Shown here in pieces: positions 6,371-53,088 of a stretch of DNA of 64,000 bases. The translations under genes were made by a program, and so were the position numbers. Position 1 is the first letter of the stretch, and each line of letters begins with the position of its first letter. Origin of the DNA: Candidatus Saccharimonadota bacterium (lineage in GTDB: Bacteria > Patescibacteriota > Saccharimonadia > Saccharimonadales > Saccharimonadaceae); NCBI GenBank assembly GCA_963928385.1, contig CAWVEQ010000012.1, positions 32,957 to 96,956 of the forward strand, in the 5' to 3' direction. The notes below the pieces were generated by a model that ran no database searches, was not told the DNA's origin, and saw only the letters and a list, made by a program, of their open reading frames with translations.

Positions 6371-7191
6371 TGACTAGTGCTCTAGCGCTGTGTGATACGC
6401 ACTGTCATATTCACGATGACGACTATCCACTGGTGGCTGAGGAGGTGTTATCCGGGGCTAGTGTAGCGGGTGTTAGTCGATTAGTGACTATGGGCAGCGA
6501 CGTGACAAGTAGTCGCCAGGCCATCAAGTATGCCCAACAATATAGCAGGTGCCATGATGTAGTCATACGTGCTGGCGTGGGACTGTACCCGCACGAAGTT
6601 CCCGTAGAGGGATTAATAGCCGATACAATTAGCGAGTTGTGCGACTTAATTAAGGAGGGTGCTGAGCTAGTTGCTGGTGTTGGTGAGATAGGTCTGGATT
6701 ATTATTACGATACAGTACCGCGTCAGCGGCAAATTTCCGCTCTAGAGCGGCTAATCCAACTGGCAATAGATAATGATTTGCCGATGTCCTTTCACGTTCG
6801 CTCGGGTGAATGGGGTGACGCCTTTACGGACTTCTGGGCAATCATGCGGAACTTTCCAACTGCAAGGGGTGTTTTACATTCTTTTACTGACAGTATGGTC
6901 AATCTGGAAAGGGCCTTGACGGCTGGTTTATATATCGGTGTCAATGGTATTGTGACGTTTAATAAGGACGAGCGGCTAAACGAAGTGTATGACAATATTC
7001 CGCTAGAGCGGATGGTGCTAGAAACAGATGCACCATATTTGGCGCCGCGTCCGTACCGGGGTAAAGTTAACCAACCAGCCTATATTCGACAGATTGCCGA
7101 ACAGCTGGCCGGCAGACGTGGCCTAGAACTGGTGAGGCTGGCTGAATTAACAACTCGTAATGCAGTGGCCATTTATCCAGCGTTAGCATGA
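6370..7191 (+). CDS. TatD-family metal-dependent hydrolase/DNase
   Basis: It has an N-terminal DTHCH motif and the typical TatD segments GEIGLDYY and HSF. The GTG start overlaps the metG stop. Confidence 0.85.
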   Translation: MTSALALCDTHCHIHDDDYPLVAEEVLSGASVAGVSRLVTMGSDVTSSRQAIKYAQQYSRCHDVVIRAGVGLYPHEVPVEGLIADTISELCDLIKEGAELVAGVGEIGLDYYYDTVPRQRQISALERLIQLAIDNDLPMSFHVRSGEWGDAFTDFWAIMRNFPTARGVLHSFTDSMVNLERALTAGLYIGVNGIVTFNKDERLNEVYDNIPLERMVLETDAPYLAPRPYRGKVNQPAYIRQIAEQLAGRRGLELVRLAELTTRNAVAIYPALA

Positions 7192-9990: not shown

Positions 9991-10015
9991 CTACTGTGAA
10001 TCTGCGTTGAGCAAC

Positions 10016-10110
10016 AAAAAATGCGGCCCAATGCCGCTATGGTTTCGCTAATCCGTTTTTGCGGACGCTTATTTGAACTTGTCGTATAAATAATCGTTCT
10101 ACTGAACTGG
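10016..10110 (-). ncRNA. tracrRNA: tracrRNA (antisense to the cas operon, upstream of cas9)
   Basis: Plus strand 10071-10107 (ATTTGAACTTGTCGTATAAATAATCGTTCTACTGAAC) resembles the CRISPR repeat on the same strand. A minus-strand transcript would therefore carry a bulged anti-repeat. That is followed by AAGUUCAAAUAAGCGUCCG (compare the SpCas9 tracr AAGUUAAAAUAAGGCUAGUCCG) and a GCGGC-AUUGG-GCCGC hairpin with a U6 terminator. The exact ends are not determined. Confidence 0.75.
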
Positions 10111-10182: not shown

Positions 10183-13100
10183 ATGAGCGAAGATAAGAAA
10201 TACTATATTGGTTTAGACTGCGGAACTAATTCGGTTGGCTGGGCGGTGACGGATGAAGAATATCACTTGCTACGTCGTCGCGGTCAAACGTTGTGGGGCA
10301 TGCGACTATTTGACGAGGCTAAGACGGCGGCAGAGCGGCGGGGATATCGTTCGAATCGTCGGCGGATGGCTCGTGCAAAGCGTCGCGTTAAGTTGCTGCA
10401 GATGTTATTCAGCGAGGAAATTACCAAGGTTGACCCGGATTTTTATATCAGACTCCGCGAAAGTTTGTATCTAAAGGAAGACAAGCGAGGTTTTTCTAAT
10501 GCCGAAGCGGTGTCAAAGCATACGCTGTTTAACGACCCTGGATTTACTGATGTGGATTACCACAAACAATATCCAACTATCTGGCACCTGCGTCAGGCTA
10601 TTATTGATTCGATAAATGATAGCTCGAAGCATTTTGATGTTCGTTTGTATTATCTAGCGATTGAGCATATTGTTAAGCATCGCGGCCACTTCCTGCGTAG
10701 CGGTGAGATCAATAGTGGTGCTGGTGATTTTGGTGGGATATGGAATAATCTGTGCGATGCTGCGGGAACGTGCGGTATTACGGTTGACAAGGCCATTGCC
10801 GGCGAGGTGGAAACTCTGTTGAAGCAAAAAATGAGCAAAATCGATAAGAAAAAACAGCTTGAGAAAATAATGTTCGCTGATGTGCTGAGTAACGATGATT
10901 ATGAAGGTGACTATAAAGCTTTGGCGCATCTACTCTGTGGCAGTAATGTCTCGCTCAGCAAGTTATTTAATATCGAGGCTGATGAAGATCTAAAATTGGA
11001 GTTTTCTAGTGACGGCTTTGAAGATAAATATCCTGTGATTAGTGACTTTGTCTCAGATATTGATGGCGCTGAGGACTTAATTTTAGCAGCCAAGTCAATT
11101 TATGATTATATCTATCTATGTGATTTGCTGAAAGATAGCGATAACATATCGGCAGCCATGGTTCATAACTATGACGTACATCATCGCGATTTAGCTGAAA
11201 TTAAACAAGCGCTAAAGCCGTTCAAGGACGATTATAATCACTTCTTTAACACTGAGGTTGCTGATAGTGATGTATTTTACAATGCATATATTGGCAAAGG
11301 CTCAACTAAGAAGGACAAAGCACGCACCGTTAATCAGGAGGAAATTAACAAAGAACTAAAGCGTCTGTTTGAGAAGGACGGCATCGGCGGTGATTTGCTG
11401 ACGCGCGCAACTGAGGGAACATTGTTGCCTAAGCAGCGCGGCTATGCTAAGGGCACCATTCCGCAACAGCTTCACCATAATGAGCTGCGGCTGATTTTGC
11501 AGAAATTATGTCAAGACTACCCCAGCTTCGCTGTTGAAGTGCCCGGCGAGAATGATAAATATAATACTAAGGCAAAGAAAATTGAATACATCCATAGCTT
11601 TAGAATTCCTTACTACTGCGGACCACTGCTATCTAAAACGCAGAAAAGCGAGAAGTTTGCATGGGGCAAGGAAATTCATGAGATTGTTTATCCGTGGAAC
11701 TACGACGAGCTAGTGGACAAAGGTGGACTAGCTGGCGAGTTCATAAAAAGCATGACTAATAAATGTACGTACGTTGTTGGTGCAGATGTTCTACCAAAGA
11801 ATTCGCTATCCTATCAACGGTACATGGTGTTGAACGAATTGAATAACCTAAAAATTAATGGTTCGCGCATAGATAACGACGTAAAACAACGTATTTATAA
11901 CCAAGCTTACTTAGGTGGCGAACTGGGTGGCAATGTTACGCTTAAGAAATTGTCAGCTTGGATGAAATCGGTCGGTATTTTAGATAAGACCGATGAGTTA
12001 AGCGGTTCTTCCGAGCAGAAGATTTTGCCAAAGTTGTCTACCCATACCGATTTTTACCGTGTCTTGGGTGCTGATTACAACAAACGATACTGTGAAGAAA
12101 AGCTAGAAGAAGTGGTCAAACTAATAACCATCTTAAACAATGAACCAGCTATGTTGGCTGAGAAAATTAAGGAAACGCTAGATTGCACTGATGAGCAAGC
12201 TCGGCGGCTGGCCAGGTTGAATTATAAAGACTGGGGTAAATTTAGCCTAGATTTCTTGCGTGGTATTAGGTCTGATATGAATGGTCGCCAGATGTCAATC
12301 CTAGAGGCTCTAGAGGAAACGACAAATAATTTACAGGAACTGCTGAGTGGCGACTTTGGCTTTAAGGCTGAGCTAGACCGAACCAACGCCGAAAAAACAG
12401 ATAACGCTGATAATGCGGATGACGCTAGCAGTGAAATTACTTACGAGCGAGTCAATAAGCTGTACTGCTCGCCTGCGGTAAAGCGAACTGTTTGGCAAGC
12501 GATCAAAATTGTTAATGAGATTCGCAAGGTCATGGGCTGTGATCCAGCTAAAGTATTTATTGAGGTAACTCGTGGTGATGAAAAGGGTAAACCAAAGGTG
12601 AAATTGGCTCGGCGCAAGGAGCTACTGGATAAATACAAAGCCATTAAGGATGGCAAGGATGACTTCGCCAAGAAACTGTTTGAACAGCTAAATAGCCACG
12701 ATGACCGCGACTTACAGTCAAAGAAGTTGTTTCTGTATTACCAACAGATGGGTAAGTGTGCCTATACTGGCGAGCGGATTGAGCTGGACGAAATTAACAA
12801 TACCCGCCTATATGATATCGACCACATCTATCCACGGTCAAAGACTAAGGACGATAGTATTACGCGAAACCTAGTGCTAGTTAAGGCGGAGGTCAATCGT
12901 GAAAAGACTAATAAATATCCTATTAATCCAGACATCCAGGCGAAAATGCGTGGCCAGTGGGGGTTCTGGTATCGAAGTGGATTGATAACTAAAGAAAAAT
13001 ACGAACGACTAACGCGTACAACGCCACTAACGCCGGACGAACTGGCTGGCTTTATCCAGCGCCAGATTGTTGAGACTGGTCAGTCAACCAAAGCAATTGC

Positions 13101-14334
13101 TGAATTACTGAATCACGGCTTATCAAAAGATACTAGAGTAATTACTGTTAAGGCTGGTGGCGTATCGGATTTGCGTCATTATTATGGCTATAACGCCAAC
13201 CCACTGCGACCAGAGTTTATCAAGATTCGCGAGCTGAACGACCTACATCACGCCAAAGATGCTTATCTAAATATTGTAGTTGGCAATGTTATTAATTCAA
13301 CGTTTACCGATAATCCACGCCATTGGATTAAACAACAACAGGATAGCGGGTATAACTACTCAATTCGTACCAATCTAATCTTTCGTGATAGTGAAATTTA
13401 TACTAAGAAAGATGGTACGACTACCAAGTATCCAGTTGTCAAGGCGTGGAATTATACCGATAGCCTAGAGACTGTTTCATCGACTATGCGACGCAACGAC
13501 GTACTGTGGACTAGAATGAATCATAGGTTAAGTAGTAAGGGCGGTGGACTGATGGACGCACAATTGGTGCGCAAGGCGCCAGGATATATTCCGCGCAAGA
13601 AGGATTCTCGCTTGCAGGACACATCAAAATATGGTGGCTACAAAAGTCCAATGGGAGCCTATTTTGCTCTAATTGAGGCGCAAGATGGTTCGCGTAGGAT
13701 AATATCCATACCGTTGCTGGAAACAAGCAATGTTAATGGCTATATCAACCAAAAGTATGGTGGCGCCAAAGTGGTTATCTCTAGAATTGATTTCATGTCC
13801 AAGATGATTATAAACGGTTTCCCGGTGCACCTGACCGGAAGAACGGGCGATCAGCTTTCCTTCTATCCAGCAAAGCAACTCCATTTACCCGTGCAAGAAC
13901 TATCTTATCTTAAACGGGTTTGCGCTGTTGCAAATAAGCTGAACGATAAAAATTACAAGATTTCCGAGAAAGACAAAGTATCGAGGAACGAGAATACGGC
14001 ACTATTTAATGCTCTAGCGGGAAGGCTGCAGATAATGAGCGATGCTCCAAAGTTTGGCAAGAGGGTGGCTGAAGTTTCTGACTACGGCGATGTATTTGAG
14101 AACATGTCTTTGGAGGAGCAGTGTAGAACCGTGTCAATCCTGTTAGGCGTGGTAGGGTGTAATGCTAGCAAGGGCGATCTATCGTTGTTAATGCCAAGGG
14201 CACAGCAGCTTGGTGGCTGCACTGCTTCGAGCAATATATCGTCTTATGGGAGTTGTAAGCTCATCTATCAATCCGTCACTGGTCTATACAAAAAAGTTAT
14301 CGATCTAAAGACTGTTCAACCGGGCGAGGTGTAG
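10183..14334 (+). CDS. cas9: Cas9 endonuclease (type II-A, 1383 aa)
   Basis: It has the RuvC-I motif IGLDCGTNSVGWAV, the arginine-rich bridge helix RRGYRSNRRRMARAKRR and the HNH motif DIDHIYPRS..N. Its size is SpCas9-like. Confidence 0.95.
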   Translation: MSEDKKYYIGLDCGTNSVGWAVTDEEYHLLRRRGQTLWGMRLFDEAKTAAERRGYRSNRRRMARAKRRVKLLQMLFSEEITKVDPDFYIRLRESLYLKEDKRGFSNAEAVSKHTLFNDPGFTDVDYHKQYPTIWHLRQAIIDSINDSSKHFDVRLYYLAIEHIVKHRGHFLRSGEINSGAGDFGGIWNNLCDAAGTCGITVDKAIAGEVETLLKQKMSKIDKKKQLEKIMFADVLSNDDYEGDYKALAHLLCGSNVSLSKLFNIEADEDLKLEFSSDGFEDKYPVISDFVSDIDGAEDLILAAKSIYDYIYLCDLLKDSDNISAAMVHNYDVHHRDLAEIKQALKPFKDDYNHFFNTEVADSDVFYNAYIGKGSTKKDKARTVNQEEINKELKRLFEKDGIGGDLLTRATEGTLLPKQRGYAKGTIPQQLHHNELRLILQKLCQDYPSFAVEVPGENDKYNTKAKKIEYIHSFRIPYYCGPLLSKTQKSEKFAWGKEIHEIVYPWNYDELVDKGGLAGEFIKSMTNKCTYVVGADVLPKNSLSYQRYMVLNELNNLKINGSRIDNDVKQRIYNQAYLGGELGGNVTLKKLSAWMKSVGILDKTDELSGSSEQKILPKLSTHTDFYRVLGADYNKRYCEEKLEEVVKLITILNNEPAMLAEKIKETLDCTDEQARRLARLNYKDWGKFSLDFLRGIRSDMNGRQMSILEALEETTNNLQELLSGDFGFKAELDRTNAEKTDNADNADDASSEITYERVNKLYCSPAVKRTVWQAIKIVNEIRKVMGCDPAKVFIEVTRGDEKGKPKVKLARRKELLDKYKAIKDGKDDFAKKLFEQLNSHDDRDLQSKKLFLYYQQMGKCAYTGERIELDEINNTRLYDIDHIYPRSKTKDDSITRNLVLVKAEVNREKTNKYPINPDIQAKMRGQWGFWYRSGLITKEKYERLTRTTPLTPDELAGFIQRQIVETGQSTKAIAELLNHGLSKDTRVITVKAGGVSDLRHYYGYNANPLRPEFIKIRELNDLHHAKDAYLNIVVGNVINSTFTDNPRHWIKQQQDSGYNYSIRTNLIFRDSEIYTKKDGTTTKYPVVKAWNYTDSLETVSSTMRRNDVLWTRMNHRLSSKGGGLMDAQLVRKAPGYIPRKKDSRLQDTSKYGGYKSPMGAYFALIEAQDGSRRIISIPLLETSNVNGYINQKYGGAKVVISRIDFMSKMIINGFPVHLTGRTGDQLSFYPAKQLHLPVQELSYLKRVCAVANKLNDKNYKISEKDKVSRNENTALFNALAGRLQIMSDAPKFGKRVAEVSDYGDVFENMSLEEQCRTVSILLGVVGCNASKGDLSLLMPRAQQLGGCTASSNISSYGSCKLIYQSVTGLYKKVIDLKTVQPGEV

Positions 14335-14340
14335 AGCATT

Positions 14341-15216
14341 ATGTCCTGGCGGGTGGTGGTTATCCAGAAACGATGCAAACTAGACTATAAATTGGGTTCA
14401 ATAGTTATTCGTGACAGCGAAGACGAAAAACGCATTCACCTAGATGATGTGTCGGTGATTATGTGTGCCACCACTGCCATATCCTTGACAGCCTATCTGC
14501 TCGCTGAAATTGTTGAGCGAAAGATAAAGATAATATTTTGTGATAATCAGCATAATCCGACGGCAGAATTAGTGCCGATGTATGGTCACTATATTAGTTC
14601 GGGCAAGATTCGTCAGCAGATAAAGTGGGATGATGAGATCAAGGGACTAGTCTGGCAAGCAATTACTAGGCGCAAGATTCAGAATCAAGCAAACATCCTA
14701 CGCAAAATTGGCCAGGACGAGCGGGCTAAAATGCTGGACGGGTTTGCCGCTGAGGTAATGCCAGGTGATACAACCAACCGTGAAGGCCATGCAGCTAAGG
14801 TTTACTTTAACTCGCTATTCGGCATGGATTTTTATCGTAATAGTGCTGATGTCCGGAACGCGGTGTTAAATTATGGTTATTCCATTTTGCTGTCGTGCTT
14901 TAATCGCGAAATTGCTGCCAGTGGTTATTTGACTCAGTTGGGATTGTGGCACGACAACGCCAGTAATCCGTTTAATCTCGGCTCGGATTTGATGGAAACA
15001 TTTCGACCGATTATTGACTACTTTACTTATGGTTGTGGTTACACCGAGTTCGCCAAAGACGAGAAGTTGGACGTAGTAAATCTATTAAATATGAGGGTAA
15101 AAGTTAATGGTGCTGAGCAATACTTGAACAATGCTATTGGTACATACGTTAGAAGTGTATTTACTGCAATTGAAGAAAAAGACATTAGCAAGATAACGGA
15201 TTGGTATGAGCTATAG
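14341..15216 (+). CDS. cas1: Cas1 integrase (type II)
   Basis: It is a 291-aa protein immediately after cas9 with typical type II Cas1 organisation and a conserved acidic/His core (NYGYS..LWHD). Confidence 0.9.
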   Translation: MSWRVVVIQKRCKLDYKLGSIVIRDSEDEKRIHLDDVSVIMCATTAISLTAYLLAEIVERKIKIIFCDNQHNPTAELVPMYGHYISSGKIRQQIKWDDEIKGLVWQAITRRKIQNQANILRKIGQDERAKMLDGFAAEVMPGDTTNREGHAAKVYFNSLFGMDFYRNSADVRNAVLNYGYSILLSCFNREIAASGYLTQLGLWHDNASNPFNLGSDLMETFRPIIDYFTYGCGYTEFAKDEKLDVVNLLNMRVKVNGAEQYLNNAIGTYVRSVFTAIEEKDISKITDWYEL

Positions 15217-15526
15217 ATTTATGCGTGTAATTGTTATGTTTGATTTGCCGACCGATACATCGGCGCAGCGTAAACATTATCGGAACTTTCGCAAATACCT
15301 AATTGATGACGGGTTTGTAATGATGCAAGAATCTATTTACACGAAAATCTGCATTAATATGCATGCAGTCGACCAAGTCCAACGAAATATTGAGCGGAAT
15401 AAACCGCCCGAAGGGATTGTTCAAGTTATGAGTGTGACTGAACGCCAGTTTGCTAGCATTAAAGTGGTTGTCGGCGAACTAGATGATACGTATATTCAAA
15501 ATGATCAGAGGTTGATAGTGTTATGA
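15206..15526 (+). CDS. cas2: Cas2
   Basis: It is 106 aa with the N-terminal MSYRFMRVIVMFDLPT motif typical of type II Cas2, and it overlaps the cas1 stop. Confidence 0.85.
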   Translation: MSYRFMRVIVMFDLPTDTSAQRKHYRNFRKYLIDDGFVMMQESIYTKICINMHAVDQVQRNIERNKPPEGIVQVMSVTERQFASIKVVVGELDDTYIQNDQRLIVL

Positions 15527-16188
15527 GATTTTCGCATACGGAGCTGAATGGCGAACTGGAGTGGACTGATACGCGCCATATTAATGAGCTAGTAGTCGAG
15601 GCGCCTACTTTTCTGCGTGGCGTTTTGTGCGATTTGTTCGCTGATGAAGCAAATTGTGTTAAATTGACCAATGGTGGCAAACCGATGAACATGCCTAAAG
15701 AGATTGACTTAATTTGCAATCCGTTAGATCTAAATTTCAACAATCGGCGTGCTATGGCAACCCTGCTAAAAATGCTAGTGAAGGCCTCGCTATCTGATGA
15801 ACTATATATGGAGACCAATGAATTTAAATCTAGGGTGATTAAATATCTGGACGAGGTTGTCGACTCCGAGAACTTTGTTTTTGAAGTTGCTGCGGATGAC
15901 TTTGCGATAGATAATATTGCCAAAGCTGTTAATCTGCATATCGTTGACGACGAGGATGACTTTGTTGACTTACTGACTGATTATATGTCGATGATGGCGG
16001 AATTAGCTGGCATAAAATTATTCGTGTTTCTAAACTTGCGAACTATGCTGAGCGATGGGGAATTGGCTCGGTTGATTGGTAACATTAATAATCACCAGTT
16101 GGATATATTCTTGATAGAGGGTCGCCAGTTTGGTAAAGTCGAGAACTGTGGCCGGATTATTGTTGATGTTGATTTGTGCGAAATTTAG
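15523..16188 (+). CDS. csn2: Csn2 (short form), type II-A signature protein
   Basis: It is a 221-aa acidic protein between cas2 and the array. The C-terminal LFVFLNLRTMLSDGEL..LDIFLIEGR parallels S. pyogenes Csn2 (LLIFINSGAFLTKDEV..LTVLFLEPRE). Confidence 0.8.
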   Translation: MRFSHTELNGELEWTDTRHINELVVEAPTFLRGVLCDLFADEANCVKLTNGGKPMNMPKEIDLICNPLDLNFNNRRAMATLLKMLVKASLSDELYMETNEFKSRVIKYLDEVVDSENFVFEVAADDFAIDNIAKAVNLHIVDDEDDFVDLLTDYMSMMAELAGIKLFVFLNLRTMLSDGELARLIGNINNHQLDIFLIEGRQFGKVENCGRIIVDVDLCEI

Positions 16189-16275
16189 CCGGTTATGGTA
16201 GAATATCAGTAGTAGGTTGTACGGTTATTACGGTTAGTCGTAGACCGTCAAAATACGCGCTTAAGCCAATTTGAG
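16189..16275 (+). promoter_or_regulatory. CRISPR leader with an extended -10 promoter candidate and an ATTTGAG leader-repeat junction motif
   Basis: TGGTAGAAT (TGn + TAGAAT) lies at 16196-16204. ATTTGAG at 16269-16275 directly abuts the first repeat. Confidence 0.7.
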
Positions 16276-16772
16276 GTTTGAGAGTCGTGTTAAATAATCG
16301 TATAGCTGAACATTTTCGTGACTTCACGGAATTGATTCTGAGTTTGAGAGTCGTGTTAAATAATCGTATAGCTGAACTCCGCACTTCAAACGCACGCCAG
16401 TTAGACCGTTTGAGAGTCGTGTTAAATAATCGTATAGCTGAACTTCCATAGGTTACTCCTAAGCAGCGTCCTTGTTTGAGAGTCGTGTTAAATAATCGTA
16501 TAGCTGAACGGACAGCGCCTAGAACCTTCATGTACTTGGGTTTGAGAGTCGTGTTAAATAATCGTATAGCTGAACCGAATTATGCGCAATGTCGCTTTGC
16601 ATCAGTTTGAGAGTCGTGTTAAATAATCGTATAGCTGAACCTCTATCTGCTTAAACGTAGCTGGCTTCTGGTTTGAGAGTCGTGTTAAATAATCGTATAG
16701 CTGAACTTGTACTTGCTTGCGTTCTGCTTCGCTCATGTTTGAGAGTCGTGTTAAATAATCGTATAGCTGAAC
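16276..16772 (+). CRISPR. CRISPR array: 8 identical 36-nt repeats GTTTGAGAGTCGTGTTAAATAATCGTATAGCTGAAC and 7 spacers (six of 30 nt, one of 29 nt)
   Basis: Repeats start at 16276, 16342, 16408, 16474, 16540, 16605, 16671 and 16737. I counted these base by base from the sequence. Confidence 0.97.
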
Positions 16773-16826
16773 TATATAATATAATTCTAGTGTGGGAAAT
16801 AAGGAGCCCACTAGAAAGGAGCAAAT

Positions 16827-17120
16827 ATGCCAGTTGATAAGAACAAGACCTTGTTGAATGTTCCTAGAGTGGAACACAGTCAAGAAGTTGTTGATAGAAA
16901 CCTTGATTCAATGCAGGCTATGCTTGACGGCATTCTTCAGCGGATTCATGATGAATTACCTGAAGGCAAATACAGGGATTACTTTGATGCTCATCAAGAC
17001 GAGTTCTATGATTGGTTCTTGGATGGAGAGAACGACCTATACCCTGTTGCTAGTTGGTTTTATGACCAAGGGTTCAAGGAAGTTGCAAATCCTGAGATAT
17101 ACAAGCAATTAGACATATAG
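16827..17120 (+). CDS. Small acidic protein A (97 aa), repeat-linked, no recognisable domain
   Basis: The ORF starts 54 nt after the last array repeat. It is preceded by TATATAATATAAT, a hairpin and an AAAGGAG RBS. It is a paralog of 17331-17627. Confidence 0.7.
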   Translation: MPVDKNKTLLNVPRVEHSQEVVDRNLDSMQAMLDGILQRIHDELPEGKYRDYFDAHQDEFYDWFLDGENDLYPVASWFYDQGFKEVANPEIYKQLDI

Positions 17121-17132
17121 AAGTTGGAGAGA

Positions 17133-17241
17133 ATGAGCAAAACCAAAAACAACATAAAACTTAAAGCCACTAAGCTAGTCCATATATTAATGGACAATGG
17201 TGGAGTTGGTTCAGGAAACTGGGGTCATTCAGGCAGACCTG
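17133..17241 (+). pseudogene. 5' fragment of a phage-type gene (MSKTKNNIKLKATKLVHILMDNGGVGSGNWGHSGRPG...) truncated exactly at the orphan CRISPR repeat
   Basis: It has a GGAGA RBS and the ATG at 17133. The reading frame runs into the repeat at 17242 and terminates at 17300. As far as I recall, the GSGNWGHxGRPG motif is common in phage and MGE structural or polyvalent proteins. Confidence 0.5.
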
Positions 17242-17277
17242 GTTTGAGAGTCGTATCAAATAATCGTATAGCTGAAC
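17242..17277 (+). repeat. Orphan CRISPR repeat variant GTTTGAGAGTCGTATCAAATAATCGTATAGCTGAAC (G14A, T16C), 469 bp beyond the array
   Basis: 34 of 36 positions are identical to the array repeat. It is followed by the same 13 nt (TATATAATATAAT) as the last array repeat. Confidence 0.9.
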
Positions 17278-17330
17278 TATATAATATAATCTATATGTAG
17301 GAGATAATAGCCCTACGGGAAAGGAGCAAT

Positions 17331-17627
17331 ATGCATGTAGATAAGAATGCAACACTAGTCAACATTCCTCATGAACCTGTAGACCATGAGGTAGCGGTAA
17401 AAAACGTAGAAGCAATGCAGGCTATGGTCGATGACATCTTTCAGAAAATCCACGACGAGCTCCCAGAGGGCAAGTATCGGGATTACTATGACTCACATCG
17501 AGATGAGTTCTGGGACTGGTTTATGGATGGAGAGCACGACCTTTACCCAGTTGCAGCTTGGTTCTATGACCAAGGATTTACTGAGGCAATCGAAGACCCA
17601 GAGGTGTTCAAGCAGTTAGATTTGTAG
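17331..17627 (+). CDS. Small acidic protein B (98 aa), repeat-linked paralog of protein A
   Basis: By manual alignment about 63 of 98 residues are identical to 16827-17120. The shared core is IHDELPEGKYRDY..DEFxDWFxDGExDLYPVAxWFYDQGF. The upstream architecture is the same. Confidence 0.7.
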   Translation: MHVDKNATLVNIPHEPVDHEVAVKNVEAMQAMVDDIFQKIHDELPEGKYRDYYDSHRDEFWDWFMDGEHDLYPVAAWFYDQGFTEAIEDPEVFKQLDL

Positions 17628-18057
17628 GAAACAATTTAAGTCAAGCACCAATGAGTCAAAAAAATAAATAAAGGATTTTTATAAAAATATATTTAGTGAT
17701 GTCGAAGAGAAATAGAGTGTACCTGAAAAATAACGGTAGCTCGCTAGACAATGATAGGTCGGGCAGCTTGAGTGTGGACCTGAACAGTGATTATTTGCCT
17801 AAGTACGTTCGGTTTACGTTTAGGGATTGTAATATTATATTGGCGGTGACTATGAGGTCTGCAAAACACTGCGCGATCAGGGCGTAGCCAAAGATTTGTT
17901 TGGCACACTGAAAGAATTTGAAGGTATGAACTGGACTACCTTTATGAATCGATCGAGAAAAACGGGGCGGTCACAAGAGCAAAGGAACCAACCAAATTAT
18001 GCAAAGCTACGGGGGCGAGTTTCCTGACATCCAGCACACTTATCCCGGCGGTTGCAA

Positions 18058-18687
18058 CTAATCCAACTTTATCTTCTCTACAACATTAATTCCCGCATCG
18101 ACCAGAGATTTATACTTAACAAAATCGTCGTGGCTGCCGACGACCATGCCGTAGTGGGTGGGGATGGCGGTGGCGGGGCGAATTCTGTTGGTGAAGTTTG
18201 CCGCTTCGGTTGCATCCATGGTGTAAGTACCGCCAATGGGGATAAATAGTGTGTCGCAACGAATATTCTCGTTTTCTGGTAAGGCGTCGGTATCGCCCAT
18301 AATGTAGTAGATGGCGTTGTTAATGGTGACGACGTAGCCCACCCAATTATTAGCTTTGGGGTGGAAATCTTTATCGATGTTGTAGGCGGGAACGGCCTGG
18401 ACGTGAACACCGTCTAAATCTAACTCATCATTTGGCTGGACGCAGCGCAACTTATTGGCGTCAAAGCCTGTCTCTGCGAGCTTGTCATATACGTCACGCG
18501 GGGCGACGATTATAGTGCTCTCGTTGACGGCCTTTTGAATGTCCTCAGGCGAGAAGTGATCCCAATGGCTATGCGTAATGAAGACGTAATTCGCATCATG
18601 CTGCTCGGATATTTTTAGCGGGTCGAAATAAACCGCTAAACCACCGTTCTCGATTCGTATACTGCTCTGACAATTAACTGTTATCAT
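18058..18687 (-). CDS. MBL-fold metallo-hydrolase
   Basis: It has the HSHWDH (HxHxDH) motif and is 209 aa. Confidence 0.8.
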   Translation of the reverse strand: MITVNCQSSIRIENGGLAVYFDPLKISEQHDANYVFITHSHWDHFSPEDIQKAVNESTIIVAPRDVYDKLAETGFDANKLRCVQPNDELDLDGVHVQAVPAYNIDKDFHPKANNWVGYVVTINNAIYYIMGDTDALPENENIRCDTLFIPIGGTYTMDATEAANFTNRIRPATAIPTHYGMVVGSHDDFVKYKSLVDAGINVVEKIKLD

Positions 18688-18864
18688 GGCTCCTCCGATG
18701 TTGTGTAATAATCTAATTATAAATTGCCGAGCTATAAATAGCGAATAGAGGAAAGTCGCCGAATGAACTAAATAGCATCACCTCATAATTCAAGTAGCTT
18801 ATTTGGTCGGCATTTTTGCAATATTTGCCTAATGTGGTATTATCGTTACTGTAACTGGTGACGT

Positions 18865-18941
18865 GGGTTGCTAGCTCAGTTGGCTAGAGCACCTCGTTTA
18901 CACCGAGGGGGTCAGGGGTTCGAGTCCCTTGCGACCCACCA
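18865..18941 (+). tRNA. tRNA-Val (UAC), CCA encoded
   Basis: A cloverleaf can be drawn by hand: acceptor GGGTTGC/GCGACCC, anticodon loop TTTACAC, and T-loop TTCGAGT. Confidence 0.9.
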
Positions 18942-18960
18942 GATAACAATTTGACGGTAT

Positions 18961-19037
18961 GGGGCACTAGCTCATTTGGCTAGAGCGCTTCGCTGGCAGC
19001 GAAGAGGTGAGCGGTTCGAATCCGCTGTGCTCCACCA
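18961..19037 (+). tRNA. tRNA-Ala (GGC), CCA encoded
   Basis: The acceptor stem carries the G3:U70 identity pair and the anticodon loop is CTGGCAG. Confidence 0.9.
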
Positions 19038-19060
19038 GTTTTTATTGTCAGATTGTGTAT

Positions 19061-19137
19061 GGGCAGGTAGCTCAGCTGGCTAGAGCGCCACATTCACACT
19101 GTGGAGGTCGGGAGTTCGAGTCTCTTTCTGCCCACCA
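19061..19137 (+). tRNA. tRNA-Val (CAC), CCA encoded
   Basis: The acceptor is GGGCAGG/TCTGCCC, the anticodon stem is CCACA/TGTGG and the loop is TTCACAC. Confidence 0.9.
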
Positions 19138-19200
19138 GTTGCGAAATTATTATGTATGCTGCCTTAGCATACTATTTTTAATAAAGAATAGGCGCTAGCT

Positions 19201-51039: not shown

Positions 51040-53088
<2,049 letters not shown>

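Follow-up and report, generated by a model that had tools for sequence, protein, structure and literature searches.

At the trailer end of a type II-A CRISPR array of Saccharibacteria we have found two cassettes of phage DNA, one of which occupies a spacer position and carries a complete gene. The array lies in a 64-kb stretch of Saccharibacteria DNA (the window, to which coordinates refer unless another locus is named), which we compared with the homologous loci L001–L020. Each cassette is a phage fragment that starts at the −10 box of a promoter and brings with it a hairpin, a ribosome-binding site (RBS) and a complete gene for an acidic protein of 96–98 amino acids (aa). The cassette is modular and variable in copy number, is exchanged with phage alleles, and persists independently of cas9. 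Our preferred explanation, held with moderate confidence, is that the cassettes are fragments of Saccharibacteria phage genomes that were captured at a trailer repeat and are held there, and that the product of their open reading frame (ORF) acts more on phage than on Cas9.

Two gene-sized cassettes at the array trailer

The type II-A locus of the window comprises a cas9-cas1-cas2-csn2 operon, a leader and an array. The array proper (16276–16772, forward strand) consists of eight identical 36-nt repeats (GTTTGAGAGTCGTGTTAAATAATCGTATAGCTGAAC) and seven spacers of 29–30 nt, and its eighth repeat (16737–16772) is perfect. The ninth repeat (17242–17277, forward strand), 469 bp further on, is a full-length variant, GTCGTATCAAAT, that differs from the array repeats at two positions (G14A and T16C). 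It is functional-looking: its pairing with the candidate trans-activating CRISPR RNA (tracrRNA) equals that of the array repeats, at −32.7 kcal/mol for both variants. A sequence-only reading of this stretch had described just such an array end, a perfect repeat 8 with a 34/36 variant 469 bp on, and its coordinates are confirmed.

Cassette A (16773–17241, forward strand) is a 469-bp phage fragment in spacer position between full repeats 8 and 9. It opens with the 13-mer TATATAATATAAT (16773–16785), which contains two overlapping −10 hexamers and corresponds to the 3′ portion of the promoter TTGAC(A/T)-17-TATAAT of the phage. There follow a hairpin in the 5′ untranslated region (16787–16814; CTAGTGtGGG...CCCACTAG), the RBS AAAGGAG (16815–16821) and ORF97 (16827–17120), which encodes a small acidic protein of 97 aa. 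The remainder (17133–17241) is the start of the next phage gene; these first 36 codons (MSKTKNN...GSGNWGHSGRPG) match the N-terminus of the 293-aa phage protein P0025 and are interrupted by repeat 9. Cassette B (17278–17627) is a second phage fragment, with −10 boxes at 17278–17290, a hairpin (GTAGG..CCTAC) at 17297–17316, the RBS AAAGGAG at 17320–17326 and ORF98 (17331–17627, 98 aa); all the parts of both cassettes lie on the forward strand.

The 13-mer stands directly 3′ of both repeats and has no other site in the window at one mismatch or fewer, where 0.35 would be expected by chance. From the first base of repeats 8 and 9 (16737 and 17242) a direct repeat of 88 nt (82% identity) extends into the cassettes, and another, of 194 nt (74% identity), lies within the two ORFs. 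The succession of repeat, shared 13 nt, hairpin, AAAGGAG and 97- or 98-aa ORF was already seen in the sequence-only reading and stands, although that reading overlooked that 17133–17241 is the start of a second gene and that the whole unit is phage DNA. Of the hairpins that it placed in the two copies, that of copy A folds better than chance (−10.9 kcal/mol, z = −2.2) and that of copy B on its own does not (−5.6 kcal/mol, z = −0.3); RNAalifold gave no support for a consensus hairpin on a MAFFT alignment, the copy A variant being the only one individually significant.

Phage loci and junctions

The small gene is found in nine phage contigs (L007–L009, L011–L013, L015, L016 and the distant L020). 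Its surroundings there are fixed, within a module of virion genes, in the order portal (840 aa)-153-421-83-443-ORF, followed by the 293-aa gene or other next genes; this synteny extends to L020, whose protein is recovered by the family profile at just E = 5e-16. The promoter TTGAC(A/T)-17-TATAAT precedes the ORF in eight phage loci, all except L020, and is the sole 12/12 promoter match in 16 kb of L007. Both hairpin variants of the window occur among the phages, that of copy A in L011. In a BLAST comparison of the window with the phage loci, homology sets in at 16773 and 17278, the first base past each repeat, and nothing phage-like is found outside the two cassettes. For cassette A the homology to L007, L011 and L015 extends to about 17233–17245. 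Identity to phage is 80–87% over the whole fragment, and cassette B is 86% identical to L015 and 83% to L012.

The left junction falls between the −35 and the −10 of the phage promoter: the phage reads ...TTGACATTTAATTTAA|TATATAATATAAT and the host ...GCTGAAC|TATATAATATAAT, so that the repeat stands where the phage −35 was. The right end of copy A is ...GGCAGACCTG|GTTTGAGAG in all host copies, flush with repeat 9, and the phage goes on as ...CCAG|GTCTTGTTGG, with GTCTTGT as the flank to the right of the fragment. Over the last 40 nt of the fragment the four compared host copies (window, L001, L010 and cassette 2 of L019) do not differ, and over the final 28 nt none of the host copies scanned does. 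In copy B, phage homology stops right at the ORF stop codon; a degenerate terminal repeat 3′ of it was not found (score 20, versus 18 ± 2.5 in shuffled sequence). Since cassette A lies flush between two full, tracrRNA-compatible repeats, in array orientation, and is phage-derived, it can be regarded as a 469-bp “spacer”, and the flush junctions with complete repeats suggest that capture took place at a trailer repeat.

The CRISPR repeat itself, in full or as either half, is absent from every phage locus examined, and no copy of it was found in IMG/VR; a metagenome scan with its 3′ half gave chance single matches only. The ordinary spacers, a set of 54 unique sequences from three arrays, have no match in the phage loci (∼30 kb of phage DNA), in the other loci or in the window.

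Persistence and exchange among host strains

The host-class loci are from Candidatus Saccharibacteria genomes (the taxon is that of L010, a metagenome-assembled genome), and the gene stands in them where the same CRISPR locus, or what remains of it, has its trailer end. Fragment and repeat together form a 505-bp unit, present in one to three copies among related Saccharibacteria: one in the lineage of L005, L014 and L017, two in the window, L001–L004 and L010, and three in L019. The junction between repeat and −10 box is kept in all host copies in or beside an array, which bears out the earlier proposal that it is a conserved part of the unit; the trailer ends of sister strains, compared as that reading had suggested, show that the unit persists after cas loss. 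L001–L004 have the two-cassette layout of the window with the repeat variants swapped (array repeat TATCAAAT, last repeat TGTTAAAT), such that of the variants GTCGTGTTAAAT and GTCGTATCAAAT the array repeat in one locus is the last repeat in the other (window 16276–17277, L001 5803–8448).

The window (10183–16772) and L019 (826–7946) are 100% identical in cas9, cas1, cas2, csn2 and leader, and have no spacer in common, with 7 in the window and 16 in L019. This indicates complete, recent turnover of the array, or its replacement, in near-isogenic strains. The middle cassette of L019 is identical to copy A. The first of its three cassettes (L019 7947–8317) is decayed; it is truncated, with a 55-aa ORF and an internal degenerate repeat-like stretch, which may be genuine decay or else noise from the long-read assembly of a tandem region. 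L004 is like the L001 strain but lacks five trailer-proximal spacers; it still has the cassette.

In other strains the cassette has outlasted the cas genes. L010 has lost everything from cas9 through the array, and both its cassettes remain. L005, L006, L014, L017 and L018 are without cas genes and keep a tracrRNA remnant, one or two degenerate repeats, and a single inverted cassette with TATAAT, hairpin, RBS and intact ORF, the sequence upstream of which is new. Hybrid junctions between the tracrRNA anti-repeat and a repeat stand at the deletions (L010 9900–9946, L005 8340–8470 and L014 8292–8400), from which we infer that cas operon and array were lost through recombination of anti-repeat with repeat in at least two lineages. 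In the cas-less lineage the inverted cassette is preceded by a sequence that nearly duplicates a local one, CCTGAT(G/A)AATCGAATGGTT(T)ATA(T)AAT (L005 7409–7445 and 7928–7965); in L005 this sequence also stands ahead of a 61-aa ORF, and it may be a recruited host promoter.

Signs of exchange are seen at two scales. Between the window (14341–19200) and L001, cas2 is 100% identical, cas1 and csn2 95%, and the trailer, the MBL gene and the tRNAs 96–97%, compared with 84% for cas9 and 82% for corA; between the window and L010, mnmA is 89% and iscS 74% identical. These values suggest that an adaptation-array-trailer block has been exchanged horizontally between lineages. Within the ORF, alignment reveals an invariant core flanked by interchangeable N- and C-terminal blocks that host and phage alleles have in common, such that host alleles read as mosaics of phage alleles. 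Copies A and B did not arise by recent duplication, their dS (synonymous divergence) being saturated and their dN (nonsynonymous divergence) 0.23. The ratio dN/dS is 0.05–0.56 over all pairs and 0.11–0.56 in close host-host pairs. The ORF is intact in 10 of the 11 non-redundant host copies examined, three cas-less lineages among them.

These data bear most directly on a neutral origin, already raised in the sequence-only reading as an inert scar, in which phage DNA recombined into the trailer once or twice, was duplicated by repeat recombination and has no role, its ORFs being intact as they are young or overwritten by phage DNA. We consider this unlikely, but a live alternative. The mosaic alleles common to hosts and phages and the decayed copy in L019 agree with it, as do the missing −35 of the host copies, the 54 spacers of which none targets the sampled phage DNA, and the block from cas1 to the tRNAs, which is far more alike between lineages than its flanking genes and so suggests recent transfer. 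Set against these are the proportion of intact ORFs, the dN/dS of the close host-host pairs, and the inverted single copy, which kept TATAAT, hairpin, RBS and ORF despite a changed upstream. Moreover, copy A is flanked by direct repeats and hence as deletable as any spacer, yet it is 100% conserved in two strains that share no spacer, and it was retained in the L004 variant that lost five nearby spacers.

Proposed capture, expression and role

Under our preferred explanation, the phage fragment would have entered at a trailer repeat either through the adaptation machinery, integrated like a spacer despite its excessive length, or by double recombination guided by earlier spacers. Unequal crossing-over between repeats and gene conversion from infecting phages would then have shaped the copies; that A and B start at an identical boundary on the left suggests a single founding junction followed by unequal crossing-over. 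The ORFs would be transcribed mainly by read-through of the CRISPR RNA (crRNA) precursor, and perhaps weakly from the −10-only promoter, in that host copies have a −10 without a −35 and no terminator-like site was scored from the leader to the end of copy B (the sole match in 16150–18100 lies inside spacer 1). Processing by tracrRNA and RNase III at repeat 9 would yield a crRNA with the guide GGGTCATTCAGGCAGACCTG, namely the fragment's final 20 nt, in which the motif GNWGHSGRPG is encoded. These 20 nt are invariant in the four host copies compared for mismatches, and mismatches between host and phage are denser in them than in the rest of the 3′ fragment (5–6 of 20 versus 5–7 of 87; Fisher p = 0.03–0.09), a cluster that fits phage escape.

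The phage gene neighborhood bears on the possible role of the small protein. A motif, GSGNWGHxGRPGxxGGS, is common to at least four or five of the phage proteins encoded around the ORF (at 6540, 8391 and 9531 in L007, at 216, 2071, 2658, 4961 and 5801 in L011, and in other phage loci). It lies mostly near the N-terminus, and at about residue 80 in a 247-aa protein of L011. The motif may be a packaging or cleavage signal of ejected effectors; its carriers include an ADP-ribosyltransferase-like protein (PF03496) and predicted papain-fold proteins, and may be packaged, ejected effectors. In the family of the 293-aa protein, NCQ...GHT residues (Cys and His) are invariant. Two paralogues give weak, sub-cut-off matches to the papain-fold toxin family PF15644 (E = 0.002–0.007), and the best Foldseek matches of a low-confidence model of the 293-aa protein (predicted local distance difference test, pLDDT, 58.5) are the cysteine-protease effectors RavD, AvrRpt2 and GtgE, at E ∼0.04. 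This predicted papain-fold enzyme is encoded by the gene following the ORF in L007, L015, L016 and L020, and one gene intervenes in L011 and L012. Because its gene neighbors are toxin-like and it is retained with or without Cas9, the small protein more probably acts on phage than on Cas9. It may serve as antidote to, or decoy for, the presumably packaged papain-fold effector encoded next to it, or may poison assembly.

Several observations weigh against this explanation. Cassette A, at 469 bp, departs from the 29–30 nt of all 54 ordinary spacers, and copy B is bounded by a repeat on its left side only. That A and B have their left boundary in common could stem from one event and a duplication instead of two captures, and GT..TG microhomology may underlie the right junction. 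Promoter scoring gave no sigma-70-like site with a −35 at 16773–16785 in the host; with the −35 missing, host expression would depend mainly on read-through. Copies can be lost, as the decayed first cassette of L019 implies. No protospacer for any of the 54 spacers was found in INPHARED, IMG/VR or JGI metagenomes, and inference of a protospacer adjacent motif failed. Constraint on the ORF may be inherited from phage and refreshed by gene conversion instead of being imposed by the host, and, given the apparently recent exchange of the block from cas1 to the tRNAs (95–100%, against 82–84% for cas9 and corA), persistence in several lineages is not independent evidence. Finally, the mismatch cluster also fits with gene conversion among copies of the GNWGH motif within one phage, L007 carrying two nearly identical copies.

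A bolder version, which we regard as improbable, would have the array store whole phage genes as oversized spacers. The 3′ end would supply a crRNA against the effector motif and the ORF product would neutralize or decoy the phage effector; in addition or instead, the phage homology would be a handle for phage transduction of the CRISPR locus between lineages, which would fit the block of 95–100% identity. If true, this would be protein-level memory carried in a CRISPR array.

The small acidic protein and further alternatives

ORF97 and ORF98 are identical at 65 positions of 100 alignment columns, with 21 and 24 acidic residues (D+E) to 9 and 7 basic ones (K+R), an isoelectric point (pI) of 4.3 in both (4.34 for ORF97) and 13–14 aromatic residues, much as the sequence-only reading had them: about two-thirds identical, strongly acidic and rich in aromatics. 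ORF97 is predicted to be helical with a disordered N-terminus, and is 100% identical to the protein of L019 cassette 2. Neither protein matched a Pfam or PHROG family, in agreement with the earlier impression that they belong to no recognized one. Their family forms 19 clusters at 90% identity among 5.8 billion proteins, clusters that contain more than 100 alleles, and an exhaustive hidden Markov model search of 1.84 billion representatives at 50% identity gave seven proteins; two remote relatives lie on contigs too short to inform. IMG/VR and INPHARED hold no relative of the small gene or of the phage portal. The profile and fold searches that had been proposed for the protein gave no match, neither in a PDB profile search (best E = 0.23) nor, at E < 1, by Foldseek against PDB and BFVD with a moderately confident AlphaFold2 model (pLDDT 63.5).

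The sequence-only reading had raised a DNA-mimic anti-CRISPR (Acr) and, as one of three hypotheses, a repeat-plus-Acr cassette derived from a mobile element. The mobile origin is upheld by the nine phage contigs and by the presence of both hairpin variants among them; the remainder is not, in that a survey of homologs finds the repeat ahead of the gene in host loci, in or beside an array, and in none of the phage loci, and nothing specific favors an Acr beyond small size, acidity and phage origin. That the protein inhibits this Cas9, serving the phage while the array copy damps the host system, we judge quite improbable. A small, phage-encoded protein of pI 4.1–4.3 without known function in family searches, with its own consensus promoter within a late-gene block, is what such a reading would lead one to see, and a well-protected phage could explain why none of the 54 spacers matches ∼30 kb of phage DNA. 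But its synteny is fixed in nine of nine phage loci, tight against the next virion or effector gene, unlike that of patchy accessory acr genes. The genes downstream are virion or effector genes, with no helix-turn-helix match and hence no sign of an aca gene, and the protein has no sequence or fold match in PDB or BFVD, which hold solved and predicted-viral structures and are no dedicated Acr library. The identical cas operons and different spacer sets of the window and L019 imply that adaptation and selection continue beside the cassette, and the ORFs are intact where cas9 is gone.

A prophage remnant with the CRISPR repeat as attachment site would likewise leave phage DNA bounded by two repeats, and phage phiAP1.1 of S. 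pyogenes is reported, in work by Varble and colleagues from 2021, to use a CRISPR repeat in this way. The phage contigs run uninterrupted across the junction site, the −35 box there being unrelated to the repeat, no integrase is found, and only 0.35–0.47 kb of phage DNA is present; we therefore hold this to be very improbable. Scarcely credible is a CRISPR-repressed toxin of the CreTA or CrePA kind, a toxic phage protein silenced by a Cas effector with a crRNA-like guide so as to make the cas genes addictive: a phage-derived small ORF beside repeats does resemble the CrePA of Acinetobacter in outline, but a stretch of 9 nt or more in common with the cassette promoters, the leader or the cas9 promoter was found in none of the spacers or guides, and L010, L005, L014 and L017, without cas9, keep intact, promoter-bearing ORFs, which contradicts addiction. 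A solitary-repeat RNA anti-CRISPR, also raised earlier, is rejected for the data in hand, as the repeat is on the host array only and the phage has a −35 in its place.

Other features of the locus

The cas operon (10183–16188, forward strand) consists, in the ORF list, of cas9 (10183–14334), cas1 (14341–15216), cas2 (15206–15526) and csn2 (15523–16188); Cas9 and Csn2 were assigned by Pfam domains in the window, and the Pfam matches of Cas1 and Cas2 come from homologous loci. The candidate tracrRNA (10006–10107, reverse strand) lies between mnmA and cas9 and has an anti-repeat, a nexus-like segment (AAGTTCAAATAAG) and a terminator hairpin with a T-run; it has no match in Rfam.

Two independent arrays contain near-identical spacers, TCCGCACTTCAAACGCACGCCAGTTAGACC in the window (16378–16407) and CCGCACTTCAAATGCACGCCAGCTGGACC in L001 (6036–6064), probably sampled from the same protospacer of variant elements. 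A target of this pair was not found, and a match of 16 nt of the L001 spacer to window 52265–52280 is probably due to chance. Beyond copy B, the trailer (17628–18057) is 96–98% conserved across lineages. It has an ORF (17696–17887) without a Pfam family, which is 108–118 aa long in L001, L002 and L010 and disrupted by a 5-nt insertion in the window and L019.

Comparison with known systems

Spacers are regarded as memories of ∼30 nt without coding capacity. An ordinary type II-A spacer-repeat unit is like copy A in being phage-derived and lying in sense orientation, flush between full repeats, in an array with leader, tracrRNA and cas9-cas1-cas2-csn2. It differs in having 29–30 nt where copy A has 469 bp with a complete gene and expression signals, at the trailer end and in one to three tandem units, and in having repeats on both sides where our second copy has one on one side only. 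Recombination between phage and spacer was reportedly described by Varble and colleagues in 2019, with the 30–35-nt spacer as the homology and a transducing hybrid as the product. The exchange of homology between array and phage is alike in the two cases, here with mosaic alleles and block transfer, whereas in ours hundreds of base pairs of phage DNA reside in the array.

Solitary repeat units, or RNA anti-CRISPRs, of phages (Camara-Wilpert et al. 2023, PMC10651486) also have a repeat adjoining phage-type DNA, but here the repeat is in the host array and no sampled phage has it. Protein anti-CRISPR loci share with the cassette a small acidic phage protein, its own promoter and a structural-gene block; the cassette differs in its fixed synteny, the lack of an aca gene and of likeness to a solved structure, the changing array alongside, and its outliving of cas9. 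CrePA, a CRISPR-repressed phage-derived toxin of Acinetobacter (bioRxiv 10.1101/2024.01.05.574328), is likewise a small phage-derived ORF inside a CRISPR-Cas locus, but our cassettes have no CreA-like guide and their ORF is kept in cas-less genomes. MuF toxins (Jamet et al. 2017, PMC5576092), polymorphic toxins that phages package and that have immunity genes, resemble the phage loci in that a small gene abuts predicted toxin-like enzymes (papain fold, ADP-ribosyltransferase) with an N-terminal motif suggesting packaging; here the small gene precedes that of the enzyme instead of following it, and there is no MuF domain.

No precedent for spacers of gene size turned up in a literature search, which does not prove that none exists. 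The cassettes are a known kind of array content, phage-derived, yet gene-sized and expression-ready, and they are a real and unusual structure: a complete phage gene with its expression signals, flush between functional-looking repeats, recurs in one to three units from strain to strain and is still present where the cas genes have gone. Were its capture owed to the adaptation machinery or to recombination guided by spacers, arrays would offer foreign DNA of gene size a way in. An active protein may be a new route of phage-gene domestication, an anti-CRISPR of an unusual type, or an antidote against effectors that phages inject. The locus shows, in addition, loss of a cas operon by recombination between anti-repeat and repeat, and offers a testable case in Saccharibacteria, whose phage-host biology is almost unknown.

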